A stretch of 64,000 nt of DNA from a virus (IMGVR_UViG_3300029305_001221:18537-82536), one strand, 5' to 3'. Shown: positions 4,051 to 37,315, counted from the first letter of the stretch. Made by a program: numbers and translations. The notes: generated by a model from the letters alone, not told the origin.

Positions 4051-4075
4051 CGCGAGATAAACAGTCCCTTTTATG
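4051..4075 (+). promoter_or_regulatory. Conserved phage promoter-like motif, copy 1
   Basis: CGCGAGATAA ACAGTCCCTT TTATG, followed by AAGGGAG and an ORF. Confidence 0.75.
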
Positions 4076-4092
4076 AAGGGAGATGTCGGAAG

Positions 4093-4179
4093 ATGGCTAA
4101 CGAAAACGTTGTAAGAGAACTAGGAAGTATTGCGGTGATTATCGCATACTTCATATTCATCTACAAGATTCTTAAGTGA
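4093..4179 (+). CDS. 28-aa hydrophobic peptide MANENVVRELGSIAVIIAYFIFIYKILK
   Basis: Lies between motif copy 1/RBS and a terminator; one predicted TM helix. Confidence 0.65.
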   Translation: MANENVVRELGSIAVIIAYFIFIYKILK

Positions 4180-4200
4180 ATCTGATGACTTTAACTTATA

Positions 4201-4238
4201 AGGGGAGATCTGGTAAATAACTGGGTCTCCTCTTTATT
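4201..4238 (+). terminator. Intrinsic terminator
   Basis: AGGGGAGATCTGG...CTGGGTCTCCTCT stem followed by TTATT. Confidence 0.6.
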
Positions 4239-4240
4239 CT

Positions 4241-4317
4241 GGGCCTTTAGCTCAGCTGGTCAGAGCCCCCGGCTCATAACCGGGTAGTCCAGGGTTCGAA
4301 CCCCTGAAGGCCCACCA
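4241..4317 (+). tRNA. tRNA with CAT anticodon, most likely tRNA-Ile2 (elongator Met is the alternative)
   Basis: Cloverleaf GGGCCTTTAGCTCAG...CCCGG CT CAT AA CCGGG...GTTCGAA...GGCCC ACCA. G1-C72 excludes initiator tRNA; acceptor stem resembles the Bacillota Ile2 type; CCA encoded. Confidence 0.9.
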
Positions 4318-4420
4318 TTGCTAGGTTTTCTGGAGAGATAAAAAACGGGAATGTAACAAATCCAGTAAAATACAAAACGTTTCCTAGCTCAAAAATTATA
4401 CCCACAGGGAGTGGATCAGC

Positions 4421-5452
4421 ATGAACGAACAAGTAGAAAGAGAAATTAATATGTATGACGGTAAAGTCTTTGGTAAAGAGGTATCTAAATACGGTCTTGA
4501 GAATGGATATTTGGATTACCTTACGCTTTCTAAGATTGTTGGTGATTGCATTTTAAACAACAATATTGTCGAATTTGTAGGTTATGAGAATTGGGAACTC
4601 GTAAACGGAGATTATGAGAATGATAGTTATTTTGAAATCTTTCAGTATTTCATTATCTCATATGACGGTTACTCAATTCTTGAAACATTCACAGACGAGC
4701 TAGTGTATTATCACGAGGGACTCGACATGTTTGTATGGGGCATTACTCATTTCGGTACAGGCTGGGATTACGTACTTACCGATATCAAACTCAAGGAAAT
4801 AAAGTAAGATGGCTAGACGACTAATTATTAGAACTCAATGTCCTATTTGTGGAAAGCAAGTTGAAGCTGTTCCAGACGGAGTTCTAAAACAGAATCCTGG
4901 TACGAGTAATGCTGAAATGGTGGTAACAAGAACTGGTTATAAGCAATATATTCACAGTTCTTGCTGGTATGGAATGATCGCGGAACAAAAACAGAAACGA
5001 CCGACTCGTAAACTAAAGGAGGCCGAGTGATATGGATAAGTATGAACGCTGGTATCACAGACGTTTGCATAATTATTTCATGGAACATTATGAAGAAGCT
5101 GAAAATGCTGACGAAATAGAGTGGTTCAATGATCCGGCTCCTAATCAATGGTTATTCGATATTCCAAAATCAAATGTCCGAGTGGAGCTCAGTTGTGATA
5201 AAAAGGGCGTCGTTACTGAGGTAACATATCAATTAAAAGGGGATAGTTAAAATGGGTATAAAACATTGGTACAACATAGAACTGACACGAGAAGGTGCAG
5301 AGATATTAAAACGATATTTGGCTAGTCACTCAATCGATTATGAACCGAGTGAATGTGACAATCTTATACACATCGAATGTCTGATCGATGAATATGAGGC
5401 TGAGAATATCGAGGATTACTTATCTGCGAACTGGGCTCTATTTACTAGTTAA
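4421..5452 (+). other. Four small hypothetical CDSs: 4421-4807, 4809-5030 (CPIC zinc knuckle), 5032-5250, 5252-5452
   Basis: Tightly packed + strand ORFs with RBSs. Confidence 0.75.
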
Positions 5453-5467
5453 ACACAAGATGTATTC

Positions 5468-5552
5468 GTAGGAGTGGCGGAATTGGAAGACGTGACAGAT
5501 TTAGGTTCTGTTGCTTTATGGCGTGTGGGTTCAAGTCCCATCTCCTACACCA
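5468..5552 (+). tRNA. tRNA-Leu(TAG)
   Basis: GTAGGAG/CTCCTAC acceptor stem, ACAGA TT TAG GT TCTGT anticodon arm, long variable arm, GTTCAAG, ACCA. Confidence 0.92.
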
Positions 5553-5640
5553 GAGTTCTAAGAGGATGGGTGTCACCGCTCTTTGTCAGAGTTGGTGGCA
5601 TCTGTCCGTTTTAATCTCTATCATAAAGGAGGCAATTTTG

Positions 5641-6003
5641 ATGGACGACATTAACATTTACGAATGTAAGGACGGACGGCTTAGAGTGTATATAAAAGCC
5701 GAAAAGAGAGTTATGTCATATCCAAAGTATTTAATGGAGAAAGCTATCGGACGAAAATTAATGGAGAACGAGCAGACACATCATCTTGATAAAGATCCAC
5801 TAAATAACGATCCTAGTAATCTGGAGCTCACAGTACGCGGAGAACATCAAAGATTACATAACCCTCGTAAGTATTTTGATAAGCTAGTCTGCTGCGAATG
5901 GTGTGGGAAAGAATTCGTCTGGACAGCTCAGCAACAGTCGAATCATTACGGAAATCATACCAAAAACTCAGGACGTGAAGCCACTCTCGGAAAGCCATTT
6001 TGA
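5641..6003 (+). CDS. HNH (homing-type) endonuclease; C-terminal zinc finger cut by an in-frame TGA
   Basis: HHLDKDPLNNDPSNLELTVRGEHQRLH HNH motif. CEWC...KPF-TGA-SKSCSGK continues in frame to TAG 6067-6069. Confidence 0.75.
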   Translation: MDDINIYECKDGRLRVYIKAEKRVMSYPKYLMEKAIGRKLMENEQTHHLDKDPLNNDPSNLELTVRGEHQRLHNPRKYFDKLVCCEWCGKEFVWTAQQQSNHYGNHTKNSGREATLGKPF

Positions 6004-6051
6004 TCAAAATCATGTTCTGGAAAATTCGGCAAACATATTCAGCAAATAAAC

Positions 6052-6137
6052 GCGGGATTGGCGAAATAGGCAGTACGCTACGGTCTTAAAAACCGTTGGA
6101 GATATCCGTGAGGGTTCGAATCCCTCATCCCGCACCA
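6052..6137 (+). tRNA. tRNA-Leu(TAA)
   Basis: GCGGGAT/ATCCCGC acceptor stem, ACGGT CT TAA AA ACCGT anticodon arm, variable arm GGAGATATCC, GTTCGAA, ACCA. Confidence 0.92.
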
Positions 6138-6168
6138 AATTTATATCTCAAGAAAGGAGGAGGTGTGA

Positions 6169-7452
6169 ATGAGAAAAGAAAAACCGCCCTTCCTCTATCC
6201 ATACCAAATGGACGCTGTGAAGAGAATGCGAAATGGCTGTATCTTATGCGGAGGCGTCGGGAGTGGCAAGAGCAGAACTGGTTTATATTACTATTTCAAA
6301 GAACAAGGCGGTAGTATAGATCCAGATTATATTCCTATGAAAAAACCAAAAGATCTATACATTATAACGACTGCCCGTAAGAGAGATACTTTGGAGTGGG
6401 AAGGCGAACTTGCTAATTTCATAATCTCAAAAAATCCGGAGGCAAGTTATTACAAAAACAAAGTAGTTGTCGACTCGTGGAATAACATTGGTAAGTACGT
6501 GGATGTGAAAGGCGCATTCTTCATTCTAGACGAGCAGAGGCTAGTCGGAAGCGGTGCCTGGGTCAAAGCGTTCTATAAAATCGCTGCGAAAAACGATTGG
6601 ATTCTACTATCCGCTACTCCAGGAGATACATGGCAAGACTACAGACCGGTATTTATCGCAAACGGTTTCTATAAAAACAAAACCCATTTTAATAGGGATC
6701 ATATTGTGTGGGACCATCGAGTTAAGAAATATCCGAAAATCGATAGGTATATAAACGAAGGTCGACTGATTAGACTGCGTAATCGTATTCTAGTTGATAT
6801 GGATTTTAATCGACCGACTACTTCTCACCATGAAGACGTATATGTGCATTATGATATTCAGCTATACAAGGATACGACCCGAAATCGAGTCAACCCATTC
6901 GAGATGGAAGTCTGGGATGACGGATCTGAACATAATCCTCCCATTAAAAGTGCTAGCGAGTTGTGTTATATTTGGCGCAAAATTGTTAATTCTGCTGAAT
7001 CTCGTCAAGTTGCATTATGTGAGCTATTTGAGAAGCATCCGAAGATGATCGTGTTTTACAATTTTGACTATGAACTTGATATTTTAAAGAGTATCTATTT
7101 CGGCGAAGATGTCGAGGTAGCAGAATGGAATGGACATAAGCATCAACCGGTCCCAACAAGCGATAGGTGGGTATATTTATGCCAATATACGAGTTCTTGT
7201 GAGGGTTGGAATTGCATAACGACCGATACCGTCGTCTTCTATTCTCAGAATTACTCTTATAAAGTTATGGAGCAAGCCTCTGGTCGAATTGATAGATTGA
7301 ATACTCCTTTCCGAGACCTATATTATTATCACCTCAAAACGCGGGCTGGTATTGATTTGGCCATTAGTAAAGCTCTGAAAGAGAAGAAGAATTTCAACGA
7401 GGGTCGTTATGTGCAGCGAATGTCTAAAGGTTATGAGAGAAGAGCCGCATAA
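6169..7452 (+). CDS. Superfamily 2 DNA helicase
   Basis: Motif I GGVGSGKS, II ILDEQR, III SATP, VI QASGRIDR. Confidence 0.88.
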   Translation: MRKEKPPFLYPYQMDAVKRMRNGCILCGGVGSGKSRTGLYYYFKEQGGSIDPDYIPMKKPKDLYIITTARKRDTLEWEGELANFIISKNPEASYYKNKVVVDSWNNIGKYVDVKGAFFILDEQRLVGSGAWVKAFYKIAAKNDWILLSATPGDTWQDYRPVFIANGFYKNKTHFNRDHIVWDHRVKKYPKIDRYINEGRLIRLRNRILVDMDFNRPTTSHHEDVYVHYDIQLYKDTTRNRVNPFEMEVWDDGSEHNPPIKSASELCYIWRKIVNSAESRQVALCELFEKHPKMIVFYNFDYELDILKSIYFGEDVEVAEWNGHKHQPVPTSDRWVYLCQYTSSCEGWNCITTDTVVFYSQNYSYKVMEQASGRIDRLNTPFRDLYYYHLKTRAGIDLAISKALKEKKNFNEGRYVQRMSKGYERRAA

Positions 7453-7470
7453 TTAACAGCTCCTATTATA
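7446..7470 (+). promoter_or_regulatory. Conserved promoter-like motif, copy 2 (overlaps helicase stop)
   Basis: CGCATAATTA ACAGCTCCTA TTATA, then GAAAGGAG. Confidence 0.65.
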
Positions 7471-7488
7471 GAAAGGAGTTGATTTCTC

Positions 7489-7758
7489 ATGAAAGAGAAA
7501 CGAAATTTCAAACAAGAGTTTAAAGACTGGTGGAACGAAAACAAGAAAGTCATTAAGACTGGAGGTCTGTGTCTACTCATCGGGGCTTTTTACGGCTTTG
7601 TCAAAGGAGTTAGCAGTGGTACTGAACTTACTGGAAGACTGATTGACAGAATCCCGTATCAAAACAACGATAAGGACGAAGACTTCGTGTATGACGAAAC
7701 AAATGTCGATGATCCAGAACTGCTCGAGTTGATTCGTCTCGAGAATGAGGAGAAGTAA
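7489..7758 (+). CDS. Small protein with a hydrophobic helix (cassette gene)
   Basis: RBS after motif 2; KTGGLCLLIGAFYGFVKG; acidic tail. Confidence 0.75.
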   Translation: MKEKRNFKQEFKDWWNENKKVIKTGGLCLLIGAFYGFVKGVSSGTELTGRLIDRIPYQNNDKDEDFVYDETNVDDPELLELIRLENEEK

Positions 7759-7767
7759 CAAATTTTC

Positions 7768-7794
7768 GAAGAGATCGCATGGTCTCTTCTTTTT
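7768..7794 (+). terminator. Intrinsic terminator; 22-bp core repeated exactly at 8104-8125
   Basis: GAAGAGATCGCATGGTCTCTTC followed by TTTTT. Confidence 0.75.
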
Positions 7795-7808
7795 ATGAAA
7801 TTCGCTTT

Positions 7809-7833
7809 CGCGAAGTTTTCAGACTCCTTTATA
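7809..7833 (+). promoter_or_regulatory. Conserved promoter-like motif, copy 3
   Basis: CGCGAAGTTT TCAGACTCCT TTATA, then GAAGGGAG. Confidence 0.75.
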
Positions 7834-7851
7834 GAAGGGAGTTGAACAACT

Positions 7852-8094
7852 ATGGATAAAAACGATAGACGAGGAAGATGTTCGCGGTGTGAATATTGCG
7901 TAATACTGTATATGCAAGACGACCCCTGGAAGCGGGTGATGGCAAAATGTATGTGTGGTCACGTTAGAGGCGTGATGATACATCAACGTTGCTCTCACCT
8001 TGATACAGTAACGGTCGAGGCAGCTAGAACTGAGGTACGCGATTTGTGCGAGCGTTTGCTTTCGCCTAAATGGTGTCCATTGGACAAAAACTAA
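7852..8094 (+). CDS. Small Cys-rich protein (cassette gene)
   Basis: CSRCEYC...CMC...C...C...CP; sits between motif 3 and a terminator. Confidence 0.72.
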   Translation: MDKNDRRGRCSRCEYCVILYMQDDPWKRVMAKCMCGHVRGVMIHQRCSHLDTVTVEAARTEVRDLCERLLSPKWCPLDKN

Positions 8095-8103
8095 CAAAGG
8101 CAA

Positions 8104-8125
8104 GAAGAGATCGCATGGTCTCTTC
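8104..8125 (+). terminator. Terminator hairpin identical to 7768-7789
   Basis: GAAGAGATCGCATGGTCTCTTC; U-tract weak. Confidence 0.6.
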
Positions 8126-8130
8126 ACTTT

Positions 8131-8155
8131 CGCGAAGTTTTCACGTTGTATTATG
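8131..8155 (+). promoter_or_regulatory. Conserved promoter-like motif, copy 4
   Basis: CGCGAAGTTT TCACGTTGTA TTATG, then AAGGGAGG. Confidence 0.75.
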
Positions 8156-8171
8156 AAGGGAGGTCTAGAAT

Positions 8172-8366
8172 ATGACTCGTAAACAAATCGACAGCATGAG
8201 AGAAGCGAGACTTTGGTTGGGACAGATTTTCGTTCCGGTGGCGTTAGGCACCATGACGATTATGTCTAATCCTGAACTGAAGGAAAAAGTTAAGAAAAAG
8301 GCGTCGACTGTTAAGAACGTATTGACAGGCCGATACAAAATTAAAGTTGTAAAAGACGAAGAATAA
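8172..8366 (+). CDS. 64-aa protein with hydrophobic helix and basic tail (cassette gene)
   Basis: RBS; LWLGQIFVPVALGTMTIM. Confidence 0.72.
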   Translation: MTRKQIDSMREARLWLGQIFVPVALGTMTIMSNPELKEKVKKKASTVKNVLTGRYKIKVVKDEE

Positions 8367-8374
8367 AAAGATTG

Positions 8375-8414
8375 AGGGGGATCTGGCGTAATAACCAGGT
8401 CTCCTAGTCTTTTG
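8375..8414 (+). terminator. Intrinsic terminator related in sequence to the one at 4201
   Basis: AGGGGGATCTGG CGTAATAA CCAGGTCTCCT, then AGTCTTTT. Confidence 0.6.
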
Positions 8415-8431
8415 GTCTCTAACTTCACTTT

Positions 8432-8456
8432 CGCGAAATTTGCAAAACGTATTATG
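8432..8456 (+). promoter_or_regulatory. Conserved promoter-like motif, copy 5 (followed directly by a terminator-like hairpin)
   Basis: CGCGAAATTT GCAAAACGTA TTATG, then AGAGGGA...TCCCTCT TTTC. Confidence 0.72.
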
Positions 8457-8527
8457 AGAGGGAAACCACCGCGTATCCCTCTTTTCTATTTCGAGGAACA
8501 ACATTTATATTTTAGGAGGAACTATAT

Positions 8528-8824
8528 ATGACTCATTCGGTCTACTATGAAGAAGCCTTCACGCAGGCTACAGCAAGACGCCACGCAATCTGGAAACTGG
8601 TTAATGAGAACGAGCAACTCAGGACTGAGTTTCAGCAAACGTACCCATTTGTTTTCGACCGGGATAAGTTCACTCAGAATATCGAGAAATTTATTTCGGA
8701 TAAAGGAATCACTATTATCGAAGAAACCCCGATCGTAGAGGTCACGAAAGAAGGAAACTATCGAGTCGATGTTTTATTCACAATTGATATTCCAGATGAG
8801 AATGACGATACGATGACGGTTTAA
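8528..8824 (+). CDS. Hypothetical protein
   Basis: TAGGAGG RBS. Confidence 0.7.
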   Translation: MTHSVYYEEAFTQATARRHAIWKLVNENEQLRTEFQQTYPFVFDRDKFTQNIEKFISDKGITIIEETPIVEVTKEGNYRVDVLFTIDIPDENDDTMTV

Positions 8825-8841
8825 AAAGAAAGGAGTTAAAA

Positions 8842-9354
8842 ATGAGAATTGAAAATTGGCAGGGTCATGAGATCCGTTTCGTCGAGGTTAGGGGCGAGTG
8901 GTATGCCATTCTTAAAGATATTTGCGACGCCCTGGATCTGAGAACTGATGGTGTAGTTCAGAGACTTGATCCAGACATGATGACGCGAGTGAAGATTGAA
9001 GTATCTGACCCCACTTCAACTGGGGATAGATCCAGAGGCGAAAACAAAACTCGCTGGATGATCGCCGTCAATGAGATCGGTGTCTATGAAGCCCTGTTCG
9101 CTAGCCGACGTCTGGAAGCTCGTCAGCTGAGACGATGGACTGCTACTGTTCTGCAGAAGTTGCGTACTCATGTTGGTCTGCAAGGTTATGAGGTAATGCG
9201 AATGACCGAGACCGAGGTGCAGGAAGACATCGACGCGTTCTTAGACGATCTCTTCTGGGATGAGGATAAGAAAATGCTTATGATGAGCGTCACTGTTGCC
9301 GGTGGCGATGTCGAGCAGGTTCCGTTCGAGGATCAGGATTTGTTTAAGGATTGA
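8842..9354 (+). CDS. BRO-N domain protein (antirepressor-like DNA-binding)
   Basis: ENWQGHEIRFVEVRGEWYAILKDICDALDL...VNEIGVYEALFASRRLEARQLRRW is the BRO-N pattern. Confidence 0.85.
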   Translation: MRIENWQGHEIRFVEVRGEWYAILKDICDALDLRTDGVVQRLDPDMMTRVKIEVSDPTSTGDRSRGENKTRWMIAVNEIGVYEALFASRRLEARQLRRWTATVLQKLRTHVGLQGYEVMRMTETEVQEDIDAFLDDLFWDEDKKMLMMSVTVAGGDVEQVPFEDQDLFKD

Positions 9355-9367
9355 AAGGAGATAAAAG

Positions 9368-10024
9368 ATGCGATTTTGTGAAAAGATAGGACCTAAAACT
9401 CATATCAGTCGATATGCTGTTTGTAAAGAGGCATGTGCTCAGTTAGATCTTAAGTACTCGGACGATAATATCGATTCCCTGTATCCGAAGATGATCATGA
9501 AAGAAGCCTTTTTAAACTATTACAATACTCTGCGTGATAACAACCAGCCTATCAGCCATGAGCTGCGAGCAATCGCCGAACGTTACGCACAGCAGGATGT
9601 TGAGTTTACAAAAATCGTCGAAAGAAGGATTAATGAAATGAAAAATAAACATCGCATGCCCCAGATCAAAAACGTCATCTTCAATGACCCCGCGACTATC
9701 GTGCTCTGGGAAGATGGCACCAAGACCGTAGTCAAGTGCGGTGACTATGATATTTACGATCCTGAAAAGGGTCTGGCCATGGCTATCGCCAAGAAGACTC
9801 TCGGTAATCAGGGTAGCTATTATGAAACCTTCAAGAAGTGGTTGCCTGAAGAAGGCGAATGGGATACCACTCAGCCGTTTATCGATGAAAAGTCTCGTCT
9901 TGACGTAGAAACTGCGTATAAGATGCTGGTCGAGGTAGCTAGAAATAAGAAAGCGACTAAAGCGGATCTTGCTATGGCGATTGGAGACGCCATTGGTTAT
10001 CTTGGGGAGGTGCTGGCCGAATGA
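9368..10024 (+). CDS. Conserved phage protein with IFNDPATIV-W-DGTKTVVKC-DPEKGLAMAIAKK domain
   Basis: Same domain recurs in 14665-15636. Confidence 0.8.
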   Translation: MRFCEKIGPKTHISRYAVCKEACAQLDLKYSDDNIDSLYPKMIMKEAFLNYYNTLRDNNQPISHELRAIAERYAQQDVEFTKIVERRINEMKNKHRMPQIKNVIFNDPATIVLWEDGTKTVVKCGDYDIYDPEKGLAMAIAKKTLGNQGSYYETFKKWLPEEGEWDTTQPFIDEKSRLDVETAYKMLVEVARNKKATKADLAMAIGDAIGYLGEVLAE

Positions 10025-10740
10025 AAGGTAAACATGTGACAACTGCTGAAAGGAACACTCAGGGCATTATCTGGATCGCTATCGTCACTCTTCTGCTGTC
10101 TACTTTATGTTTCAACCGTGTCGTTATCAACTTGGAAAGCGAACTCGCAGCCCTTCAGGAAAGTTACAACGAACTGGTAGAAGAAGTGGAAGCTTTAAAA
10201 ACTGATATTTCTGAACCTATCGTCAAAACCGTTTATCTTGGCCCGAGCCCCGAAGCTGTTATGGAACCGGAAGTCATTGAGGTAATCGAAGAAGAGTCTG
10301 TCGAGTTTCCTGAATTAGATGAGTCGTATGACGAAGCGGCAATTTATCTGGCAAAGACCGTTTGGGGAGAGGCTAGAGGATGCTCCACTACTGAGCAGAG
10401 TGGGGTTATTTGGTGTATTCTGAATCGAGTCGACAGCGACCTGTCCTATATGCCGAACGACATCATTAGCGTTATTACGCAGAAAGATGCGTTCCATGGA
10501 TATAGTTCAAAACATCCAACAATCGATGACGAGGGTCAAGACCTGGTGGAGTTAAGCAAGGATGTCATTCAACGATGGCTTGCTGAAAAAGAAGGGATCG
10601 AAGACGTCGGACGTGTTTTGCCTGAGGAATATCTCTACTTCGCATCTGACGGCAAGGGTCATAATCGATTCCGAAGCGAATACAAAGGTACTGATTACTG
10701 GGATTGGTCGTTAGAAAGTCCTTACGAGGAGGTAGGTTAA
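10021..10740 (+). CDS. Membrane-anchored SleB-like cell-wall hydrolase (Hydrolase_2)
   Basis: N-terminal TM helix and coiled coil; LAKTVWGEARG...VIWCILNRV...VITQKDAF...YLYF. Confidence 0.8.
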   Translation: MKGKHVTTAERNTQGIIWIAIVTLLLSTLCFNRVVINLESELAALQESYNELVEEVEALKTDISEPIVKTVYLGPSPEAVMEPEVIEVIEEESVEFPELDESYDEAAIYLAKTVWGEARGCSTTEQSGVIWCILNRVDSDLSYMPNDIISVITQKDAFHGYSSKHPTIDDEGQDLVELSKDVIQRWLAEKEGIEDVGRVLPEEYLYFASDGKGHNRFRSEYKGTDYWDWSLESPYEEVG

Positions 10741-10741
10741 T

Positions 10742-10957
10742 ATGATCGAGGCAGGTCAAAAAGTCAAATTCAAACCTTTCGAAGATATGGGTATGAGATT
10801 TCCGAGGATGTTCGATGAGGATACGAGCGGAATTGTCGTATATGTTCACAAAAAACATGGATGGTTTATGGTTGAGTACGGCAATTGTCATAATCGGATC
10901 AGCTTTAAGTTCAGCGATATCGGTAACAACGTACATATTGTAAATGACGAGGAGTAA
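10742..10957 (+). CDS. Hypothetical protein
   Basis: RBS GAGGTAGG; operon packing. Confidence 0.65.
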   Translation: MIEAGQKVKFKPFEDMGMRFPRMFDEDTSGIVVYVHKKHGWFMVEYGNCHNRISFKFSDIGNNVHIVNDEE

Positions 10958-11283
10958 TGCATATTATGAACTTCCATGTTATAGCCGTCGATTTCGACGA
11001 TACGCTTAGTCTCGACGCTAAATGGCCTGATTGCGGTAAGCCAAATGAACCGCTGATTCGACATCTAATAAATCAGCAAAGACGTGGCAGCAAACTAATT
11101 CTCTGGACGTGCCGTTGCGGAGAAGATCTTGATGCTGCTATCGCTTGGTGCAAGGAGCATGGTCTTAATTTCGACGCCGTGAATGACAATATCCCGGAGG
11201 CTATTGAACTATTCAAGGATAATAGTCGGAAAGTATTTGCTCACGTCTATATCGATGATAAGAACTCATACATGAGGTGGTAA
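10957..11283 (+). CDS. HAD-superfamily phosphatase (BT0820-like, capless)
   Basis: IAVDFDDTL motif I, LWTCR motif II, KVFAHVYIDDK motifs III/IV. Confidence 0.85.
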   Translation: MHIMNFHVIAVDFDDTLSLDAKWPDCGKPNEPLIRHLINQQRRGSKLILWTCRCGEDLDAAIAWCKEHGLNFDAVNDNIPEAIELFKDNSRKVFAHVYIDDKNSYMRW

Positions 11284-11305
11284 AAACATTTTAAAATTTC
11301 TTTTT

Positions 11306-11334
11306 AAGGGCTGCTGTAGGAGGGCGGCCCTTTT
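11306..11334 (+). terminator. Intrinsic terminator
   Basis: AAGGGCTGC...GCGGCCCTTTT. Confidence 0.65.
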
Positions 11335-11356
11335 ATAATTTGAAAGGAGAAAAAAT

Positions 11357-13411
11357 ATGGAATTCATGAAGGTTAAGGAAAGACTGGCAGCCAACTTCGC
11401 AAACGTGCTGGGCGATAAGTATCTGCTCGAGGTTGAGTTGGATAAGGACGAGCTGTGGAACGTCTATCTCGATAGCTTCCCCGAGGGCACCAACCCTATC
11501 TATCGTACTCGTCGAGAATACGACTGTAGCTGCTGCCGACACTTCATCAAGAATATTGGCGGCACCGTGTTTATCGATGAGAATCTTGAAGTTCACACTA
11601 TCTTTGAGTTTGATACCGATAGCGCTGTGTTCCAGCCTGTAATGGATGCTCTAGATACTTTCGTCAAGAGCAAGCCCATTGCAGATCTGTATCTGAGCAA
11701 TGATCGTACTGTTGGTACTGATAAGTCTCGCGAACTCAGCCCTGGTGGTTCCGTCATTGTATGGGATCATTTCTTCCTGAGACTGCCCGATCAGTGCATT
11801 ACTCGTGGCGATTATCGAGACAGTATCGGCACTCTGAAGGGTCGTTTCCGCGATCGTCGAAATGTCTTCAAGCGGTCTCTGGATGAGATCAGCATGGATG
11901 CTATCGACACTGTCCTGGAACTGATCGCCTCTAACACTCTGTACAAGGGTGAAGAGTGGAAAAATAACCTCAATATCCTCAAGGAACATAAGACCGCATA
12001 TGAGAATCTTTCTGACGAAAAGAAAGAACTGTATACCTGGTATCACGCTACTACGATCGGCGATGTCCTGGGTAAGATCCGCAACCATTCCATCGGCGTC
12101 CTGCTGACTGATATTTCTGAAGGCATGGAGCTGGATGCTGCGGTGAGACGTTATGAAAAGATCGTCGCCCCCTCTAACTACAAGCGCCCCAAAGCTATCT
12201 TCACTAAGCGTATGCTGGAGGATGCGAAGAAGACCATTACCGAACTTGGTTATATGGATTCTCTGCAGCGCAGATACGCCACTCTGGATGATATCACCGT
12301 AAATAATATTCTGTTCTCCAATCGCGATGCGGCTAAGCGTATTGCTGGCGATGTATTCGATGACATGATGGCCGACATCCCAGTAAAGCAGTTCTCCAAA
12401 ATCGAAGAAGTCAGCGTAGATAAGTTCGTGTCTGATATTCTCCCCACTGCTAAGGAAATCGAAGTTCTGCTGGAAAATAAGCATGCTCAGAACATGGTTT
12501 CTCTGATTGCTCCCGTTAATAAAGACGCTAAGACCATGTTCAAGTGGGACAACGGTTTCAGCTGGGCATATTCCGGTAACATCACCGATAGCGACATGCG
12601 TGAACGTGTTAAGAATGCCGGTGGTAACGTCGATGGCGTCCTGCGTTTCAGCATTCAGTGGAATGACATCGAAGGCGCAGTGCATGACGGAAATGACCTG
12701 GATGCGCACTGTATTACTCCCTGTGGTCGGGCTGACCATATTTTCTTTGGTCATAAGCATTCCATTAGTACCGGCGGTTTCCTGGACGTCGATATCATTA
12801 ATCCTATTCCTGGCAAGCCTGCGGTTGAGAATATCGCATGGTCTACTAAGAACCACATGATTCCCGGAGAATATGCGTTCTTCGTGAATTGTTATAGCAA
12901 TCGAGGTGGACGAAACGGTTTCCGAGCCGAGATTGAGTTCGACGGCAAGATTTATAGCTATGACTATAAGAATACTCTGCGCACTGGAGAAAACGTTGTC
13001 GTCGCAACCGTCATTCTGGATAAGAACGGCAACTTCGCCATTAAGGAAAAGCTGAAGTCTACTCAGGCTTCTCGTGAGGTCTGGGGTCTGAAGACTAATA
13101 CCTTCATTCCTGCTACGGTTGTTATGTATTCGCCTAACTACTGGGATGATCAGCAGGGTATCGGTCATAGACATTATTTCTTCATGCTCAAGGACTGTGT
13201 AAACCCCGAGAATCCCAATTCCTTCTACAACGAGTTCCTGAAGCATGACCTGGAGAAGCATAAGCGAGTATTCGAAGCTCTGGGTAGCAAGCTGGCTGTT
13301 AAATCTGCTGATGATCAGCTCTCTGGTCTCGGCTTCAGCGCAACCAAGCGTAACGATCTGACCGTCAAGGTAAAGGGCGCTACTGAACGCGTCATTAAGA
13401 TTAAGTTCTAA
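11357..13411 (+). CDS. Large conserved phage protein (684 aa); C-terminal YfaP-like domain possible
   Basis: YDCSCCRHF cysteine cluster; SIQW...DLDAHC...GGFLDVD...VENI pattern; strongly biased codon usage. Confidence 0.7.
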   Translation: MEFMKVKERLAANFANVLGDKYLLEVELDKDELWNVYLDSFPEGTNPIYRTRREYDCSCCRHFIKNIGGTVFIDENLEVHTIFEFDTDSAVFQPVMDALDTFVKSKPIADLYLSNDRTVGTDKSRELSPGGSVIVWDHFFLRLPDQCITRGDYRDSIGTLKGRFRDRRNVFKRSLDEISMDAIDTVLELIASNTLYKGEEWKNNLNILKEHKTAYENLSDEKKELYTWYHATTIGDVLGKIRNHSIGVLLTDISEGMELDAAVRRYEKIVAPSNYKRPKAIFTKRMLEDAKKTITELGYMDSLQRRYATLDDITVNNILFSNRDAAKRIAGDVFDDMMADIPVKQFSKIEEVSVDKFVSDILPTAKEIEVLLENKHAQNMVSLIAPVNKDAKTMFKWDNGFSWAYSGNITDSDMRERVKNAGGNVDGVLRFSIQWNDIEGAVHDGNDLDAHCITPCGRADHIFFGHKHSISTGGFLDVDIINPIPGKPAVENIAWSTKNHMIPGEYAFFVNCYSNRGGRNGFRAEIEFDGKIYSYDYKNTLRTGENVVVATVILDKNGNFAIKEKLKSTQASREVWGLKTNTFIPATVVMYSPNYWDDQQGIGHRHYFFMLKDCVNPENPNSFYNEFLKHDLEKHKRVFEALGSKLAVKSADDQLSGLGFSATKRNDLTVKVKGATERVIKIKF

Positions 13412-26823: not shown

Positions 26824-26848
26824 CGCGAAGGAAACAAGCTCCTTTGTG
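26824..26848 (+). promoter_or_regulatory. Conserved promoter-like motif, copy 6
   Basis: CGCGAAGGAA ACAAGCTCCT TTGTG, then AAAGGAG. Confidence 0.72.
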
Positions 26849-27146: not shown

Positions 27147-27173
27147 AATTTTTAACATCAAAGGAGTAGCACT

Positions 27174-30100
27174 ATGATATTTCTAAAGATAGTTTTATGG
27201 ACAGCGATTGTTACCGCATCATTAGTCGCCATTGCGTTTTTATGTATCACGATCTGCGAATATTCTAGTTACAAAAAAGATACTTTACGCTATACATATC
27301 AGAAATTAAACGCCAAGGTATTCATGTCTACATATCATCTGTTTCCCAATCGATATAGTTATGATTGGTCCGGAGATGGATATATCGAATCATTAACCTA
27401 CGCGATTGTTGAACCTGGCGGTAATGCGTTTTTCCCAAATAAAACAGAGTATTGTATTTTGCTCAACTTTATCGATTACTGCAGGGTTAACGTGTTTTTA
27501 ACTAGAGAAGAGTCGACAAAGAAACATAAAGAAATCGTTGACCGTGAAACTAACGTCGTTTTGGAAGACCTGCAGAAATTAACCAAAGAGGAAATTGAAA
27601 AGGCTAGTCGAGAAGTCGATAACGCGATTGCAGATGTTAGAAAGCATATGGTGAATGTTTGAGGAGGTGGAGGAATGGATCGTAAAGAAGCGATAATGCG
27701 TATTGTGGAGCATATGCATATTCACAAAATCGGGGAGTATCCGCATATTTATATCAAAGAAGCTTTAGTAATGGCGATCGCAGCTTTGCAGGAAGAACCT
27801 GTGAAACATGGACGGTGGGTTGATCGATATGGCGGGAAATATGCAAACTCATTATATGAGTGTTCTGAATGCAAAGGGAAGGCTCTTTACAAGTTCGAGG
27901 TGGATGTATTAGATCGCGAGCAGATCGTTCAGGCGTTGACCGCTATTTGCCCCCATTGCGGAGCGAAGATGGATAAGGAGGAATAACGATGTCTATATTA
28001 TTCAACAAAGATCGTTCTGAAATGATCGTTTCTTGTAAATGCGGATGTGAGGATAGTGTTCATATTCGAATCGATAAGGACGATCCGGACACCTTTGCTA
28101 TTGTAACATACCTTAATGGCAACTTCTACTCCGAGCAGAACGAAAAAGTATTTCGTATTATTGGCGAGAAACTCAAGAAAATCTGGGCCATTATTCGAAA
28201 TAAGGACTATTACTATTCTGACATTCTGATGTCTAAGTCGGAATGGGAAGAGTTCGTCGAGTTTGTGAATGGGTGTCTGGAGGACTAAGTCTATGAAGTT
28301 TGTACTTATGGAAGATGGTTTTGATGAGGCGGTCAACGATATTCGAGGTTACTTAAAGAAGGCTCTGGAAACTAAAAATACAAAAGAAAAAAATCTTATG
28401 ATTGCCCATGCCAGTGGTATTGCCAACGCGATTTATAAGCTGGTGACAACGAGAGAAGAGGAGAAGGCTGGGAAGTATGAAGATTCTAGTGAATAAAATG
28501 CCTGAGAAAAAAGAGGCGTGTCTGTTCTATAGAACGGAAAAATACTACGATCGTGTTATGCGTGTATATTGTGGCGTGAATAATAAACCGTGCAGCTTCA
28601 AGGATGGCAGTTGCAGATGTTTGCGAATGAATGTCGATAAGGTGGAGTAATAACATCTATGGTAGATTACGTTTTCGCTGGTATTGCTTTCGGTTGTTTC
28701 ATCTGTCTTGTTATCATGACCGCTGCTAAATTTATGAGGTGAAAAAATGAAAGTAGAAGATCTGACAGTCGATGCTTCGATGTTGGCTGATGGCTGTTAT
28801 GCTATCCGTGTCCCTAAACACGTAGCCACAATAACCATTTGCGGTGCGGTTCACTGTGTCATCGATGATACTATGAGTTTTACAAAACCTACGCCGGAGC
28901 AAATTAAGAATCTAAAAGAGACGTTTTGCATTGACGTAGAATTATTTGATGAGGAATAAGGAGGAATAAAAAATGGATGGAGCAAGCTTTTTCACTGCGG
29001 AACTGAATAAGGTATTCGGTAAAGAAATGGCAAACATGATCTCTGCGGAGATTACAGACGAGGAACTGCTGCGGCATGCTAAAAATGCTTGGCAGGATAT
29101 TACTACTTCGAGGAATTACTACAGCGATCCTGAACTCCGGTCGTATCTCAAGAAGGAATACATGGAGCGTCTTAAGAAACACATCAGCGACGTTATCCAG
29201 GAACAGGACGAAAAAGCCCTGCGAGCAGAAGCTGAGAGTATCGTTAAGCAAATCATGGACGAGGCTCGCAAGAAGATGATCGATCAGGTTAGCGATAATA
29301 TGGCTTATCTGGTATGCGGCAGCCCTCAGGGCGGCGGTATGAGATCGTTCACGGAGCATATTATTTATGATGTGATGAATCGGTAAGGAGTGATGATGCG
29401 CAATGGAAGAGTATGTTCTGGATAATGGACGAATAAAACTCGGTCCAGATTGCATGGGCGCTGTCGAGTTTGAAGATGGTCGTTACGAACCTATTACCAG
29501 TATAGATTTCATTACGAAAGCTTATTTCCGATTCATGACAGCGAGCGGTTTGTATGCTTACAAGGAAGGCTATGAACAAGAAGAAATATTATATTGCGAT
29601 CCGAGACCGTATACATTTTTCCATTTGAGATACGAGTTTGGAAAATTTGATTATGATCGGTTGGAATGGATGCATATAAGTAACATAGCTAGAGTGTACG
29701 TATACGAACCTGCTTTTTCAGATGTGTTTAATAAGGAGGAAGTATGAACGAAATAAATTACAACGAACTCTCGCTGGAAGAGTTGAGTACGGTGGTTAGA
29801 TCGGCTTTATCGACTATCTACAATAAACTTCGAGAAGAAGAGGACTTCAGTTGGGATCAAAAGTGCGTGGTCGAGAATTTCGGCGGTGAAGAGCACGAAG
29901 TACAACTTCTTATCTTTAACGGCACTTCTGGTACTCCGGGTATTCACTGGCCCGAAACATATTATATTTAACTATGAAATCCACAAGCTCAATAATTAAG
30001 TGCTGTTACAAATGTATCGACAGATTCATAGGCTGCCATAGTACGTGCGAGAGGTACAAAGCCGAAAAACAACACTATGAGGGGTTGAAGGCTGAATATA

Positions 30101-30640
30101 ACAAAGGTCATGAAGCAGATGCGTATACAATGCAGGGTTCGCTTCAGAGACGAAACAGGGCAGCTCTAGCTCGGAGAAAAAATGTAACATTCAGGCGAAA
30201 TTACAAGTGAGGTCATTATGGAAGTATTGAAACACGGTGGTAAGATCTATGGAGGTAGGTTGACTGCTGCTGAGAAAAAGGCTTTGCAGCTTGAACTCGA
30301 TAGAATGATTGCGGAAGAACGAGCTGCTATGAAAGCCGAGTACGAGAAAATGCGGCAGGATATTCTCAAGGATCTTGAGGAATTTAACAACAATAATTTA
30401 AAAGAGATCGATGCTATGTTCCTCTGGAGACTACATGAGCATGAGGGCTGGGGTCGTATTAAAATGAAGCGCTTTTATATTGACTTTCACAACGATATGA
30501 AGGCTTTGGGTGAGCGCTATGAGATGGAGACCTCTGAGGAGAAGATCTGGCTCTGCACTCATAAGCTTAAGGAATATGGCGTTGATCTCGATGAGTGGGA
30601 GAAGGAAGTAAAAATGCTGAACTCTGAGGACGCGAAGTAA
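27174..30640 (+). other. Small CDS cluster: 27174-27662 (TM), 27675-27986 (HGRW zinc ribbon), 27989-28288, 28293-28496, 28747-28959, 28973-29386, 29403-29747, 29744-29971, 29974-30210, 30218-30640
   Basis: Contiguous + strand ORFs with RBSs. Confidence 0.72.
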
Positions 30641-30655
30641 ACAGACTCCTTTATG
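30631..30655 (+). promoter_or_regulatory. Conserved promoter-like motif, copy 7 (overlaps last codons of the upstream gene)
   Basis: CGCGAAGTAA ACAGACTCCT TTATG, then AAAGGAG. Confidence 0.75.
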
Positions 30656-30670
30656 AAAGGAGTGATTGTT

Positions 30671-30971: not shown

Positions 30972-31006
30972 ATTTCTGAAGTTATCTTAGGAAATTCTGA
31001 AGGTAG

Positions 31007-31653: not shown

Positions 31654-31669
31654 ATAAGGAGAAAAAAGT

Positions 31670-32281: not shown

Positions 32282-32285
32282 TTCT

Positions 32286-32840: not shown

Positions 32841-32853
32841 AGGAGCATGCTAA

Positions 32854-33186: not shown

Positions 33187-33189
33187 ATT

Positions 33190-34026: not shown

Positions 34027-34336
34027 TGCTTAGTTTCTTACTCGCCTTGGTTGCTATTTATATTCTGTTAGCGGTACCAAGGTCATACATACGGTTTCTG
34101 GTAGTATTGTCGATTGCGTTGGATGCTCTTCTGATTGGCGGAGCGTTGTGGTTGATTTTTGGGAGATAATTTATGCGTGATAAAAAGAATTTACGTAGAG
34201 TGAGCTTTGTGGTTAATTCGCAAACCCTTTGGCATTTGAAAAAGCTGGCTTCTGAGGCTGGATATTCTGATCGGGAGCTGGGAAGAGTTATAGATAAACT
34301 GGTTCGCGAGAGAGTTGCGGAAAGGAATAATGACAG

Positions 34337-35261
34337 ATGACAGAATGTAAATATGCCAGGAATTATGGTGCTGATCGAGTTGGTCTAGTTGATATTCGCT
34401 GTATGGGAACTAAAGAGTTAGATCCATGTTCTGGGTTTGATAACTGTCCGCGGTACACGCCGAATTATAAGACGAACGAGAATTGGCTGAAGGGTCTGAG
34501 TAAAACTGAGTTTGCTCGGTTTATGGCTACGACTACCGATATTTGTCAGCATTGTGCTAGTCTAGACTGCTACGAGGTTGACTGTATTGATGCGTGGGAA
34601 CACTGGCTTGGTTTGGAACATACGGAGGGCAAGTGATGGATACGTGGGACTTTAAATATCGAATTCCTTGTCTTATTTGCGGTGATGTGGTCGAGACAGT
34701 TTATCCTGATACCAATCCTAAGATCTGCGAGTCTTGTCGGTGTACGATAATGGCTCTGAAAAAGAGAAAATGTTTGATTTGTGGTGAGGATGTGGAGGAT
34801 GCAGGTGACCAGTTCGTGTGCAATTCTTGTAAAGGGGTAATAGCGCCATTTAGATATCCTAGAGAAGTTGACGCCGATGTGGCCGTGCATGAATTAATGA
34901 CGAAGCATCTGATTATTCCTGTCGAGACTGCGGAACCTATGAAAGATCCTTGTATCGACTGTGATAAGAGTTGGACTGATAGTTCGGGTTGGAAATGCAA
35001 ATATGAGTGCCCGAAGAGATTCGCGTATCTGGATAGTTTGATGAATGGGTAGGAGGAGGCTCTGTAATTATGATTGATGTTATCGACGATATCATGACTG
35101 AACTTAAGGATTGTAAAGCTAGAATCAATGAACTTGAGGCGGAACTTGATAAGGTTAAGCGCGAACGAGATGGATATTTTCGTAAATTGGAGATCGTTCG
35201 GAAGTATTTGAATACTCTCCAGAAGCAGGGCAAACAAGCTAAGCCGGTAAAGAAAGCGTGA
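34337..35261 (+). other. CDSs 34337-34636, 34636-35052 (two CLICG zinc ribbons), 35070-35261 (coiled coil)
   Basis: ORFs with plausible starts and Cys patterns. Confidence 0.68.
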
Positions 35262-35463
35262 GCAAATGTGGTGGCATTGGATTAAGGTTATTTATCTCGC
35301 TATTTCTGGCACTGTATTCTTTTGGCTTATGAATACAGAGAAAGAGCATATCGGTTTTACGGAGGTTTTGGCGGGCCTGATTGTCGGTGGTTTATGGCCT
35401 ATTGCGCTCGTAATTGGGTGGTTTAAGGTTCTTAAAAAGTAGTGAAAAGGGTGGTGAAACTTA

Positions 35464-35691
35464 TTGAATCGTAAGGAATTTGGCGATATGTTTCGAGAAA
35501 AAGTGGCTGGCGAGCTCGTTAAGCAGGGTATTAATAAGGCTGAATTGGCTCGAAAATCTGGCTTGGCAGCCTCTACTGTGACCGAATATATGCACGGGGA
35601 TAAGGTCCCAAGCCTTCTAAATGCTGCAAAAATTGCGTCTGTTTTAGGCTTTTCACTGAGCGAATTTGACGTTGAAAATAGGAAAAGATGA
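35464..35691 (+). CDS. XRE-family HTH regulator
   Basis: GINKAELARKSGLAASTVTEYMHGDKVPSLLNAAKIASVLG. Confidence 0.85.
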   Translation: MNRKEFGDMFREKVAGELVKQGINKAELARKSGLAASTVTEYMHGDKVPSLLNAAKIASVLGFSLSEFDVENRKR

Positions 35692-35699
35692 GTAAAATC

Positions 35700-36085
35700 A
35701 TAAAAATTCGTGGCCACTTTTAAAAACAGGATTTGGCCAATTGGACAAATATTTGGCCAATTTTGCAACTTTTTAAGAAAAACGTTGTTCGAGGTCACTT
35801 AAATATTCTTAATCGGGCTCGAAAAATTGACCAATTTTGCTCGTTTTTCGGCATTTTTTGGCCATTTTTTGCATTAGGATTTGGCCATTGGCCACTTTTG
35901 AAAATGGATTTGGCCACGGGAAAACCCAGTAATTGCAAGGGTTTGAGGGCTCTCTGGCCAAATGGTCAATTATTTTTCTTATTTAGTATAGAGTAAAATT
36001 GTAAAATATTTAATTTTAAAATTAAAAAAAGTGAAATTTCAATTCTATAATAAATAAGGGTAAAATGCGGAAAAGTGGCCACAAG
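35700..36085. repeat. AT-rich intergenic region with 9 TGGCCA palindromes (putative origin or operator array)
   Basis: TGGCCA at 35711, 35734, 35754, 35859, 35882, 35889, 35911, 35955, 36076; near matches TGGACA/TGACCA/TGGTCA; nearly pure A/T tract about 35970-36064. Confidence 0.7.
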
Positions 36086-36115
36086 TTGATTTTATGCGTA
36101 ACAAGGAGAACTTCT

Positions 36116-36559
36116 ATGGAATACGTGAATAACGCTGCTCGACTAGTCTATGACGATTTCGTCAACAATTATCCAAATCTGGCTAGAGAGATTGTCGACT
36201 GGTATCAGAGCGGTCAACTAGAGATTGTAATTAAACTTCGTAATGATGAACGTCTCGCCTATGACTTCACAAATCATACCTATAGATATTTGAAAAAGTT
36301 TAAAGAGAGCGAGTACGGCCTACCCGACTTCTCGGAAGAAGAATGGTCTAGAGGTTTCGCTAGTAAACTTAGAAAAAAAATGCGAGTCAAGGGCATGAGT
36401 GGAAAAGAGCTTGCAGCTCGATCTGGAATTAGCGAGTCTCGCATTAGTCAATACTTAAATGGTAAGACAGTGCCGAGTGCAGTGGCCGTCGCTAGACTTG
36501 CCCTTGCGCTGGAATGCTCCGTGTCGGAATTGTCGTGGTTCGCTGAGTTGAGTTTGTGA
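36116..36559 (+). CDS. Protein with C-terminal XRE HTH
   Basis: GMSGKELAARSGISESRISQYLNGKTVPSAVAVARLALALECSVSEL. Confidence 0.85.
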   Translation: MEYVNNAARLVYDDFVNNYPNLAREIVDWYQSGQLEIVIKLRNDERLAYDFTNHTYRYLKKFKESEYGLPDFSEEEWSRGFASKLRKKMRVKGMSGKELAARSGISESRISQYLNGKTVPSAVAVARLALALECSVSELSWFAELSL

Positions 36560-36581
36560 GGGTGGAGGAGAGGGAAGTAAA

Positions 36582-36842
36582 ATGAAAAAGAAGAGTAATA
36601 GAAAAGATACCATTGACGACATTAAAAGAAAGATCGAGAGTTTGAACGGGCGCATCAATGCCGCGAACATACGTAACGATAAAATTAAACGGTCCAAACC
36701 TCGTGGTATCACAGATATTGTTATTAACCAACATACTATAGATCGGAATGACCGCATCATTGCTAAAAACCAACATGACGTCGAAGTGCTAAGAGAAGCC
36801 GCCCATATCTTAGCTGGAAGAACTTATAAGGTGGACTTCTAA
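36582..36842 (+). CDS. Basic hypothetical protein
   Basis: RBS GGAGAGGGAAG. Confidence 0.65.
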   Translation: MKKKSNRKDTIDDIKRKIESLNGRINAANIRNDKIKRSKPRGITDIVINQHTIDRNDRIIAKNQHDVEVLREAAHILAGRTYKVDF

Positions 36843-36853
36843 TACATATTCTT

Positions 36854-36878
36854 CGCGAATCTAACAATCAGCTTTATA
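36854..36878 (+). promoter_or_regulatory. Conserved promoter-like motif, copy 8
   Basis: CGCGAATCTA ACAATCAGCT TTATA, then GAAAGGAG. Confidence 0.75.
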
Positions 36879-36894
36879 GAAAGGAGTGAACTTT

Positions 36895-37149
36895 ATGTTC
36901 GGAAACACGATTTTCAAAAACACACAAGGTTACTTCACCAAAGCAGCTAGCGATCAGCTCGATGTTACTCTCGAAGCTGCCAAGAAACTTGTGAAACTTA
37001 CTTCTATGGATTGGTATCTTGTAGAAGGAACACTGTATAACAAGGTTCGTGGTGCTTGCTTCGCAGAGGGCATCGTATGCGGTCTGGCCTGCGCTGGTGC
37101 AGCCTGTGTGGTAAACAAAGCTGTCAAGAAGCATAAAGAAGAAACCTAA
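36895..37149 (+). CDS. Small cassette protein with hydrophobic Cys/Gly/Ala-rich C-terminal helix
   Basis: ATG 8 nt after AAAGGAG; GACFAEGIVCGLACAGAACVV. Confidence 0.72.
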   Translation: MFGNTIFKNTQGYFTKAASDQLDVTLEAAKKLVKLTSMDWYLVEGTLYNKVRGACFAEGIVCGLACAGAACVVNKAVKKHKEET

Positions 37150-37159
37150 TTTAAAGACT

Positions 37160-37197
37160 AGAGGTTTGCGTAAAACACGCAGCCTCTTTTCTTTTTC
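37160..37197 (+). terminator. Intrinsic terminator closing the cassette
   Basis: AGAGGTTTGCGT AAAAC ACGCAGCCTCT TTTCTTTTT. Confidence 0.78.
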
Positions 37198-37290
37198 TGG
37201 GAGAGCGCAGCGATAGCAGCCTCTTTTATTTTTTTGTCCGAAAGTATTGAAGACAATCCACCTCCACATAATTTTACTCAAAAATAGGGA

Positions 37291-37315
37291 CGCGAAAAAA
37301 ACAGGTCCTTTTATG
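37291..37315 (+). promoter_or_regulatory. Conserved promoter-like motif, copy 9, upstream of the nuclease-RNAP operon
   Basis: CGCGAAAAAA ACAGGTCCTT TTATG, then a leader hairpin. Confidence 0.75.

Follow-up and report, generated by a model that had tools for sequence, protein, structure and literature searches.

Several phages are known to encode RNA polymerases that recognize promoters of their own, among them T7, N4, phiKZ and AR9, P23-45 and the crAss-like phages. Here, we describe a 25-bp motif that is repeated on one strand of a virus contig from IMG/VR (IMGVR_UViG_3300029305_001221; 82,536 bp), and which is probably the promoter of a polymerase encoded by the same phage. The stretch under study, referred to as the window, comprises bases 18537-82536 of this contig (64,000 nucleotides); all positions are those of the window unless the contig or another phage is named. 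What sets this system apart from those listed is a single chain of about 900 amino acids (aa) with the DNA-binding domains built in. In the literature searched, no paper describing this promoter was found.

Thermus phage P23-45 has a virion enzyme, gp96, with AT-rich promoters and a non-virion enzyme, gp64, with GC-rich promoters, and these promoters were mapped by Oxford Nanopore Technologies (ONT)-cappable-seq and chromatin immunoprecipitation sequencing (ChIP-seq) (PMC10770324). Late promoters of the non-virion polymerase have the form T-3 A T G+1 in phiKZ and AACA-N6-T-R+1 in AR9, and the AR9 non-virion polymerase uses a separate specificity subunit, gp226, and uracil in the template strand (PMC7598289). 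YonO of the Bacillus prophage SPbeta is a single-chain two-barrel DNA-dependent polymerase that transcribes, with a single start site, a long late operon, and its promoter sequence was left undetermined (PMC5467207). The phage 1706 family was named among the YonO-like proteins by Ruprich-Robert and Thuriaux (PMC2919709), and a putative polymerase flanked by helix-turn-helix (HTH) domains was described as a signature gene of a group of Actinobacteria and Firmicutes phages in a 2021 preprint (10.1101/842583). Sequence-based predictions of the family, PHROG 4291, thus date from 2010 and 2021, and neither publication mentions a promoter or describes an assay. The present analysis adds an argument for the start site from tRNA-like genes and hairpins, an explanation of arrays that lack the gene as truncated contigs, and a caveat on co-occurrence.

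Motif array and its polarity

The window contains nine copies of the motif, which are listed here with the genes or open reading frames (ORFs) next to them.

4051..4075, + strand: motif copy 1, heading a 28-codon ORF with tRNA-Met and a series of small genes and further tRNAs behind it
7446..7470, + strand: motif copy 2 (CGCAT variant), overlapping the last 7 bases of a helicase-like ORF and heading an 89-aa gene
7809..7833, + strand: motif copy 3, 20 bases past a hairpin at 7768-7789, heading an 80-aa gene
8131..8155, + strand: motif copy 4, just past a hairpin at 8104-8125, heading a 64-aa gene
8432..8456, + strand: motif copy 5, past a terminator-like hairpin at 8376-8405
26824..26848, + strand: motif copy 6 (TTGT variant), heading a 79-aa gene and the block behind it
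30631..30655, + strand: motif copy 7, overlapping the last 10 bases of the upstream ORF
36854..36878, + strand: motif copy 8, heading an 84-aa gene
37291..37315, + strand: motif copy 9, the last of the contig, heading the nuclease-exonuclease-polymerase operon

Copies 2 and 7 are the ones that reach into the final 7-10 bases of the ORF upstream. The block behind copy 1 also holds ordinary tRNA genes for Met (CAT, 4241-4317) and Leu (TAG, 5468-5552; TAA, 6052-6137).

Motif positions 1-3 are CGC in all nine copies (CGCGA in eight, CGCAT in copy 2), positions 12-13 are invariably CA, positions 21-24 read TTAT in eight copies and TTGT in copy 6, and positions 25-28 are purines throughout. These coordinates and letters had been given in an initial annotation made from the sequence alone, and every one of them is correct. 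When both strands were scanned with the strict pattern CGC-N8-CA-N7-TTRTR, nine matches were obtained on the + strand of the window and none on the minus strand. In 100 dinucleotide-preserving shuffles of the window the mean was 0.58 strict matches and the maximum three, so that no shuffle reached nine.

In the whole contig, 22 strict copies were found, all on the + strand, 13 of them at contig 3011-11412, upstream of the window. A weight matrix trained on these 22 copies scored them at 24-39 bits, while the best minus-strand site in the 82.5 kb reached 0.4 bits. The matrix added six weaker intergenic copies on the + strand (16-28 bits), all upstream of the window, and no further copy inside it. 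The nine copies of the initial annotation therefore stand as the complete set for the window, but not for the contig: the wider search that it had proposed yields 28 copies (22 strict and six weaker), all on one strand and between genes, of which 19 are located in the 18.5 kb that precede the window. No copy was detected in the 26.7 kb between copy 9 and the window end, where the polymerase and tail-like genes are located.

A megablast search with 20 kb of the window against isolate phages returned no matching DNA. When a 14-base form of the motif was compared with bacterial genomes, the 80 matches listed were only lone single matches in unrelated phyla.

Cassettes and predicted start site

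According to the weight matrix of the 22 strict copies, the motif consists of CGCGWA at positions 1-6, CA at positions 12-13 (mostly within WWACA), Y-W-T-T-A-T at positions 19-24 and a purine run at positions 25-28 (G/A, R, A, R), the latter being purine in 22 of 22 copies. The distance from the motif to the start codon is 16-40 bases. Seven window copies are directly followed by a Shine-Dalgarno run, and the leaders of copies 5 and 9 form a hairpin whose 5' arm begins at motif position 25 (RNAfold). Inspection of the leaders and folding thus bear out the earlier description of the purine run as ribosome-binding site (RBS) in seven copies and as hairpin arm in two. Where the RBS is set off by another 20-30 bases, as in the early-region copies, positions 25-28 are still purines, indicating that the purine run is part of the motif and not merely an RBS.

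The following hairpins are found at copies 5 and 9.

8456..8483, + strand: hairpin at copy 5 with a T-run after it (RNAfold, -13.8 kcal/mol for the 70-nucleotide leader)
37166..37182, + strand: terminator-like hairpin ahead of copy 9, closing the preceding cassette (terminator scan)
37315..37374, + strand: long imperfect hairpin from position 25 of copy 9 (RNAfold, -18.3 kcal/mol)

The same arrangement was observed in the related Faecalibacterium phage FP_oengus, in which the copy ahead of the polymerase operon (27684) is followed by a leader hairpin at 27708-27746 that starts at motif position 25. As folded, the hairpin at copy 5 could be either a 5'-terminal stem-loop or a promoter-proximal terminator. 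More generally, the T-run hairpins at copy 5 and at the polymerase-operon copy of FP_oengus look like attenuators, promoter-proximal terminators or 5' stabilisers.

In the early region, 34 terminator-like hairpins were found on the + strand, compared to 12.6 expected. Most of them end between a few and about 50 bases ahead of a motif copy, and the resulting unit is a terminator, then the motif, then a small gene. Within the window, the hairpins at 7768-7789, 8104-8125, 8376-8405 and 37166-37182 show the same order. In the motif-free late region of the window, unlike in the early region, terminators are not enriched.

The start site can be narrowed down with the help of a tRNA-like gene at contig 11437-11512, which was found by ARAGORN. 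The gene starts exactly on position 26 of the motif copy at contig 11412, and this copy sits directly behind a terminator. ARAGORN reports the gene as tRNA-???, with a complete cloverleaf and an abnormal anticodon loop; the product may be a non-decoding RNA made without a leader. FP_oengus shows the same position-26 arrangement (motif at 2910, tRNA-like gene at 2935-3006), and in a further IMG/VR contig, G018, a tRNA-like gene likewise begins at motif position 26. Since the acceptor stem must be transcribed and a terminator lies just upstream, transcription would have to start at or before position 26. Together with the leader hairpins at position 25, this points to a start at position 25 or 26, and we conclude that transcription probably begins there. 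A start right after TTAT, and hence a compact promoter from about -24 to -1, is what the initial annotation had predicted, and the tRNA-like genes and hairpins support it well.

The strict strand polarity, the terminator-motif-gene cassettes, the tRNA-like genes starting at position 26 and the hairpins starting at position 25 all argue for a promoter. On these sequence features, the assignment of the motif as a promoter is well supported.

Predicted polymerase and conservation of the motif

Copy 9 precedes the operon with the polymerase gene, as had been noted at the outset, and a motif copy is found ahead of the nuclease-exonuclease-polymerase operon in FP_oengus, Circum and, in a weaker form, Rima as well. 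Positive autoregulation of the polymerase is therefore plausible. The genes concerned are as follows.

37424..38763, + strand: three genes between copy 9 and the polymerase (99 aa, 173 aa and 187 aa)
38767..41514, + strand: predicted single-chain two-barrel RNA polymerase of 915 aa (PHROG 4291, DFDGD at 526-530, HTH segments)
41518..41790, + strand: 90-aa acidic protein, PHROG 4303, with no Pfam domain

The 99-aa protein is homologous to VRR-Nuc/endonuclease genes of relatives, the 173-aa protein is a P-loop protein, and the 187-aa protein is an exonuclease (PHROG 3953).

The match of the 915-aa protein to PHROG 4291 is full-length (1186 bits). Pfam searches gave a weak match to RNA-dependent RNA polymerase (RdRP) and a C-terminal match to HTH_38 or a sigma-70 region-4-like domain; with the N-terminal segments, the protein has three to four HTH segments. 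DFDGD is invariant in 29 close relatives and five distant lineages. In the second N-terminal HTH, the helix S-E-S-x-x-R is almost invariant over five lineages, whereas the other HTHs vary. A search of solved structures by sequence gave no match. An AlphaFold model (mean pLDDT 76.5) was compared with the PDB by Foldseek, and the best matches were Neurospora QDE-1 (E 9e-9) and the Thermus phage enzymes P74-26 gp62 and P23-45 gp64 and gp96, with further matches to plant RDR2 and the largest subunits of cellular polymerases. The modelled protein thus has a two-barrel fold with a metal-binding DxDGD loop. The family is large, with more than 8000 clusters at 90% identity (E <= 1e-20). In a six-frame regular-expression search of this truncated contig, the N-terminal HYG...YPWGSG segment, considered as a possible capsid-targeting leader shared with other proteins, was found nowhere outside the polymerase gene.

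The gene for PHROG 4303 directly follows that of the polymerase in five lineages (this contig, FP_oengus, Circum, Rima and 1706). Its product shows 61-73% identity over the full alignment in 25 close relatives and is approximately as conserved as the polymerase. A complex prediction with polymerase residues 41-915 and the PHROG 4303 protein scored 0.22, compared to a mark of 0.32, a value that does not bear on binding either way. Three DUF6353 paralogs (PHROG 2152) are encoded in the early-middle region (contig 11549-12322, 12593-13369 and 15031-16053), and homologs occur in the four comparison phages.

Up to the contig end, no homologs of the relatives' terminase, portal and capsid genes were detected, for which reason the record looks truncated. 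In lytic relatives the polymerase gene is located at the genome end and adjoins structural genes. Virion-borne polymerases are known from N4, the crAss-like phages and P23-45. For the polymerase described here, a hint that it is carried in the virion comes from the product name in the GenBank record of phage 1706, where the homolog (orf75) is called a structural protein. Relative to FP_oengus, the polymerase operon is separated from a conserved HNH gene by tail-fibre-like genes that take up about 10 kb (41948-51251); they include Mtd_N-domain proteins and a CotH kinase-like protein with Big_2 domains.

The motif was compared in four phages, all of which encode a PHROG 4291 polymerase with HTH domains at both ends.

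Faecalibacterium phage FP_oengus: polymerase 54% identical, motif near-identical, 12 copies
Arthrobacter phage Circum: polymerase 48% identical, motif with CGCGTA, TTACA and TATAAT, at least 8 copies
Streptomyces phage Rima (59% G+C): polymerase 45% identical, motif with CGCA, TTACA and TATART, then AGACCC, 12 copies
Lactococcus phage 1706: polymerase 37% identical, motif with CACATG, TTTACA and TATAGT, about 11 copies

The geometry is identical in all phages compared: C-R-C at positions 1-3, CA at positions 12-13, the hexamer at positions 19-24 and a purine at position 25, on the coding strand only. It was observed in this contig, in the four phages, in the IMG/VR contigs G011, G018 and G019, and in the GenBank scaffold MT835485.1. 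The most diverged upstream block belongs to the phage with the most diverged enzyme.

Co-occurrence of motif and polymerase gene in relatives, on which the initial annotation had staked its reading, was assessed in 24 IMG/VR contigs chosen from matches to the 14-base form of the motif. The polymerase is encoded in 20 of them, including four long contigs with a single exact match. One exception (G020) has a lone match that is evidently due to chance. The other three (G011, G018 and G019) carry full motif arrays, and each ends before the syntenic position of the gene, as judged by tblastn synteny with this contig. Although CheckV rates G011 (55.6 kb) as 90% complete, this contig breaks off, by synteny, at the equivalent of about 38 kb in the 82.5-kb contig, and the polymerase is missing from it along with much else; CheckV completeness for this lineage can therefore mislead presence/absence tallies. 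MT835485.1, which also has the array and lacks the gene, is truncated likewise. It is the lone candidate in the isolate collection, where no complete relative without the polymerase was found. Among isolate phages, tblastn detected 253 records with the pol/primase and 250 with the polymerase, with the same genus counts.

Proposed readers of the motif and comparison with known systems

We consider it probable that the motif is the promoter of the phage's own polymerase, spanning approximately -24 to -1 and followed by a purine start. We infer that this enzyme is the reader because no other core protein combines a polymerase fold with HTH domains, and because the geometry is wrong for the host enzyme and the letters differ between lineages. 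The idea of a cognate promoter of the phage polymerase, as first put forward, gains from the co-occurrence across phyla and the lineage-specific letters, but the co-occurrence is equally strong for other core genes.

Indeed, several observations weigh against the phage enzyme as the reader. The polymerase belongs to the core genes of a single phage lineage, and the motif co-occurs equally with the pol/primase, the helicase, the small nuclease, the exonuclease, the three DUF6353 paralogs and PHROG 4303, so that co-occurrence cannot set the polymerase apart from the rest of the core. The start site is a prediction from anatomy. A search for sequencing runs with the early region listed no RNA data set, which has no bearing on expression. 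In the literature searched, there was no report of a PHROG 4291 member making RNA from DNA, and Pfam and GenBank label relatives as RNA-dependent RNA polymerase or HTH protein. In addition, the terminators that close the cassettes are of the ordinary intrinsic kind, the bases at positions 19-24 match a sigma-A -10 hexamer (TATAAT or TATAGT) perfectly or nearly so in Circum, Rima and 1706, and the phage is temperate, so that prophage induction needs some host-driven start.

These last three observations are also what one would expect if the host RNA polymerase read the motif, with positions 19-24 as the -10 element and the CGCG and ACA blocks bound by a phage activator or a sigma-remodelling factor. 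The T4 middle promoters, which depend on MotA, are a model for activator-dependent use of the host polymerase, and the CGCGWA block lies about 12 bp from the hexamer, near the spacing of the MotA box. The 915-aa HTH protein could itself be the DNA-binding factor, given its three to four HTH segments and its label in GenBank, where most records annotate homologs as DNA-binding protein; an intact DFDGD loop and a two-barrel fold would be needless for such a factor.

The details of the motif speak against the host enzyme, and we regard this explanation as unlikely. In sigma-70 promoters, the -35 hexamer lies 16-18 bp from a -10 hexamer with A as its second and T as its sixth base, and transcription starts 6-8 bases beyond the -10. 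No -35-like hexamer is present 16-18 bp upstream of motif positions 19-24, and the hexamer itself is mostly YTTTAT here and in FP_oengus, without the A at -11. Even under a lenient 9-of-12 rule, sites overlapping the motif were found for only three of the 28 copies, and separate scans placed no sigma-70-like site at the copies of the window. Such sites are not enriched either (55 found versus 45.9 +/- 6.0 expected in the early region, and 13 versus 11.8 in a further scan). The predicted start is 1-2 bases past the hexamer instead of 6-8; a -10 at positions 19-24 would place the start near position 31 and cut 5 bases off the tRNA-like genes of three phages, and the 5' hairpins begin at position 25. 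The statement of the initial annotation that the motif fits neither the sequence nor the spacing of sigma-70 promoters thus holds.

The lysogeny module, on the minus strand at contig 3568-6058, encodes a serine integrase (617 aa) and, next to it, an XRE-type repressor (127 aa). The single good sigma-70-like site (TTGACA-16 bp-TAGTAT), at contig 6009-6036, faces away from the repressor gene and toward the early genes, which is where a host-read switch promoter of a temperate phage is expected. FP_oengus is also temperate, while 1706 and the actinophage relatives have no lysogeny module.

The phage polymerase might also read the motif together with a separate phage protein, PHROG 4303 or a DUF6353 paralog, which would be required for recognition or melting in the way of gp226 in AR9. 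PHROG 4303 follows the polymerase in five lineages and is equally conserved, conservation also extends to the three DUF6353 paralogs of the early-middle region, and an initiation factor is needed by most of the multisubunit two-barrel polymerases known (PMC7598289). The polymerase, however, already has HTH domains at both ends, one of them sigma-70 region-4-like, and no recognisable DNA-binding domain was found in PHROG 4303 or DUF6353. We therefore judge the involvement of such a helper to be improbable.

That the motif is no promoter at all but a repressor operator array or an RNA-level signal for processing or ribosome loading is very improbable, as its location 16-40 bases ahead of start codons and the complementarity of its 3' half to the Shine-Dalgarno run (stem of at least 5 bp in 11 of 28 copies) are outweighed by the terminators ahead of most copies, which leave little upstream transcript to process, by copies that head tRNA-like and other non-coding RNAs, by arrays in the strictly lytic phages 1706, Circum and Rima, which have no lysogeny module, and by an inverted repeat that is not conserved.

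Two further promoter classes were considered. A hairpin promoter of the type used by the N4 virion polymerase does not fit, as a perfect stem of at least 5 bp around positions 22-25 occurs only in the 11 copies mentioned, and one of at least 6 bp in three; the occasional stem is explained by chance complementarity of the motif's 3' half to the RBS. As to a promoter of the T7 class, the protein scans covered the larger proteins and the conserved core proteins of the contig, and the sole polymerase-like protein recognised among these was the two-barrel PHROG 4291 enzyme.

If the phage polymerase is the reader, it would contact the CGCG and ACA blocks through its fused HTH domains and melt the AT-rich hexamer at positions 19-24 beside the start site, and the first transcribed bases would be G-R-A-R. 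The early region would then be a row of self-contained promoter-gene-terminator cassettes. The last copy would drive the polymerase operon, generating a positive feedback, and probably also the long motif-free late region. Upon prophage induction, the host-type promoter by the repressor gene would be a candidate trigger.

A stronger version of this proposal is more doubtful, and we put it forward only tentatively: the 915-aa protein might be a self-sufficient, sigma-fused minimal polymerase that is carried in the virion, recognises the CGCG and ACA blocks of a duplex promoter with its own HTH domains, starts at position 25-26, needs no helper from host or phage and runs essentially the whole programme independently of the host polymerase. 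If this were true, there would be a natural case of a two-barrel catalytic core to which promoter-recognition modules have been fused, and with it a compact orthogonal system that already works in Firmicutes and Actinobacteria. An enzyme that works unaided could serve as a small orthogonal expression system for Gram-positive bacteria. The system exists in cultivable phages, namely 1706, Circum and Rima.

Of the known systems, P23-45 is similar in that its phage-encoded single-chain two-barrel polymerases each have their own motif, and in that the presence of the motif tracks the presence of the enzyme among relatives; the P23-45 motifs lie upstream of mapped starts, whereas the start is predicted here. 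Structurally, P23-45 gp64 and gp96 and P74-26 gp62 are among the best matches of the model. No similarity is detectable at the sequence level, and the two sets of motifs are unrelated. The enzyme described here bears an HTH domain at either end and has no fusion to a tape measure protein.

The non-virion polymerases of phiKZ and AR9 are likewise sigma-independent two-barrel enzymes, and they use a short AT-rich element that abuts a purine start. Here, TATG is found at motif positions 22-25, with an ACA element upstream. Those enzymes are multisubunit, however, and the present motif is much longer and more informative than TATG. The spacing from ACA to the start is 10-11 bases, compared to six in AR9.

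The phage described here shares with the host of YonO that it is a temperate Firmicute phage, and YonO and the phage 1706 family are both members of a broad YonO-like group (PMC2919709). YonO, the one single-chain relative that has been assayed, belongs to a different family within this group from our polymerase, and no multi-copy motif has been reported for it. The question raised by YonO in 2017, what a single-chain two-barrel polymerase recognises, can now be tested in a related family.

Promoters of the T7/T3/SP6 class resemble the motif in being contiguous, about 23-25 bp long and ending at the start, with an AT-rich segment from -4 to -1 and a purine start, and in occurring in many copies on one strand, with the gene of the enzyme itself among those that they drive. 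The enzymes differ, being two-barrel here and Pol-I-like single-subunit there, and none of the contig proteins scanned looked T7-like. Sigma-A and T4 MotA promoters share with the actinophage and 1706 variants a TATAAT-like hexamer and a conserved box about 12 bp upstream. Unlike sigma-A promoters, the motif has no -35 element at 16-18 bp and a predicted start 1-2 bases past the hexamer, and its Firmicute variants usually have no A at -11.

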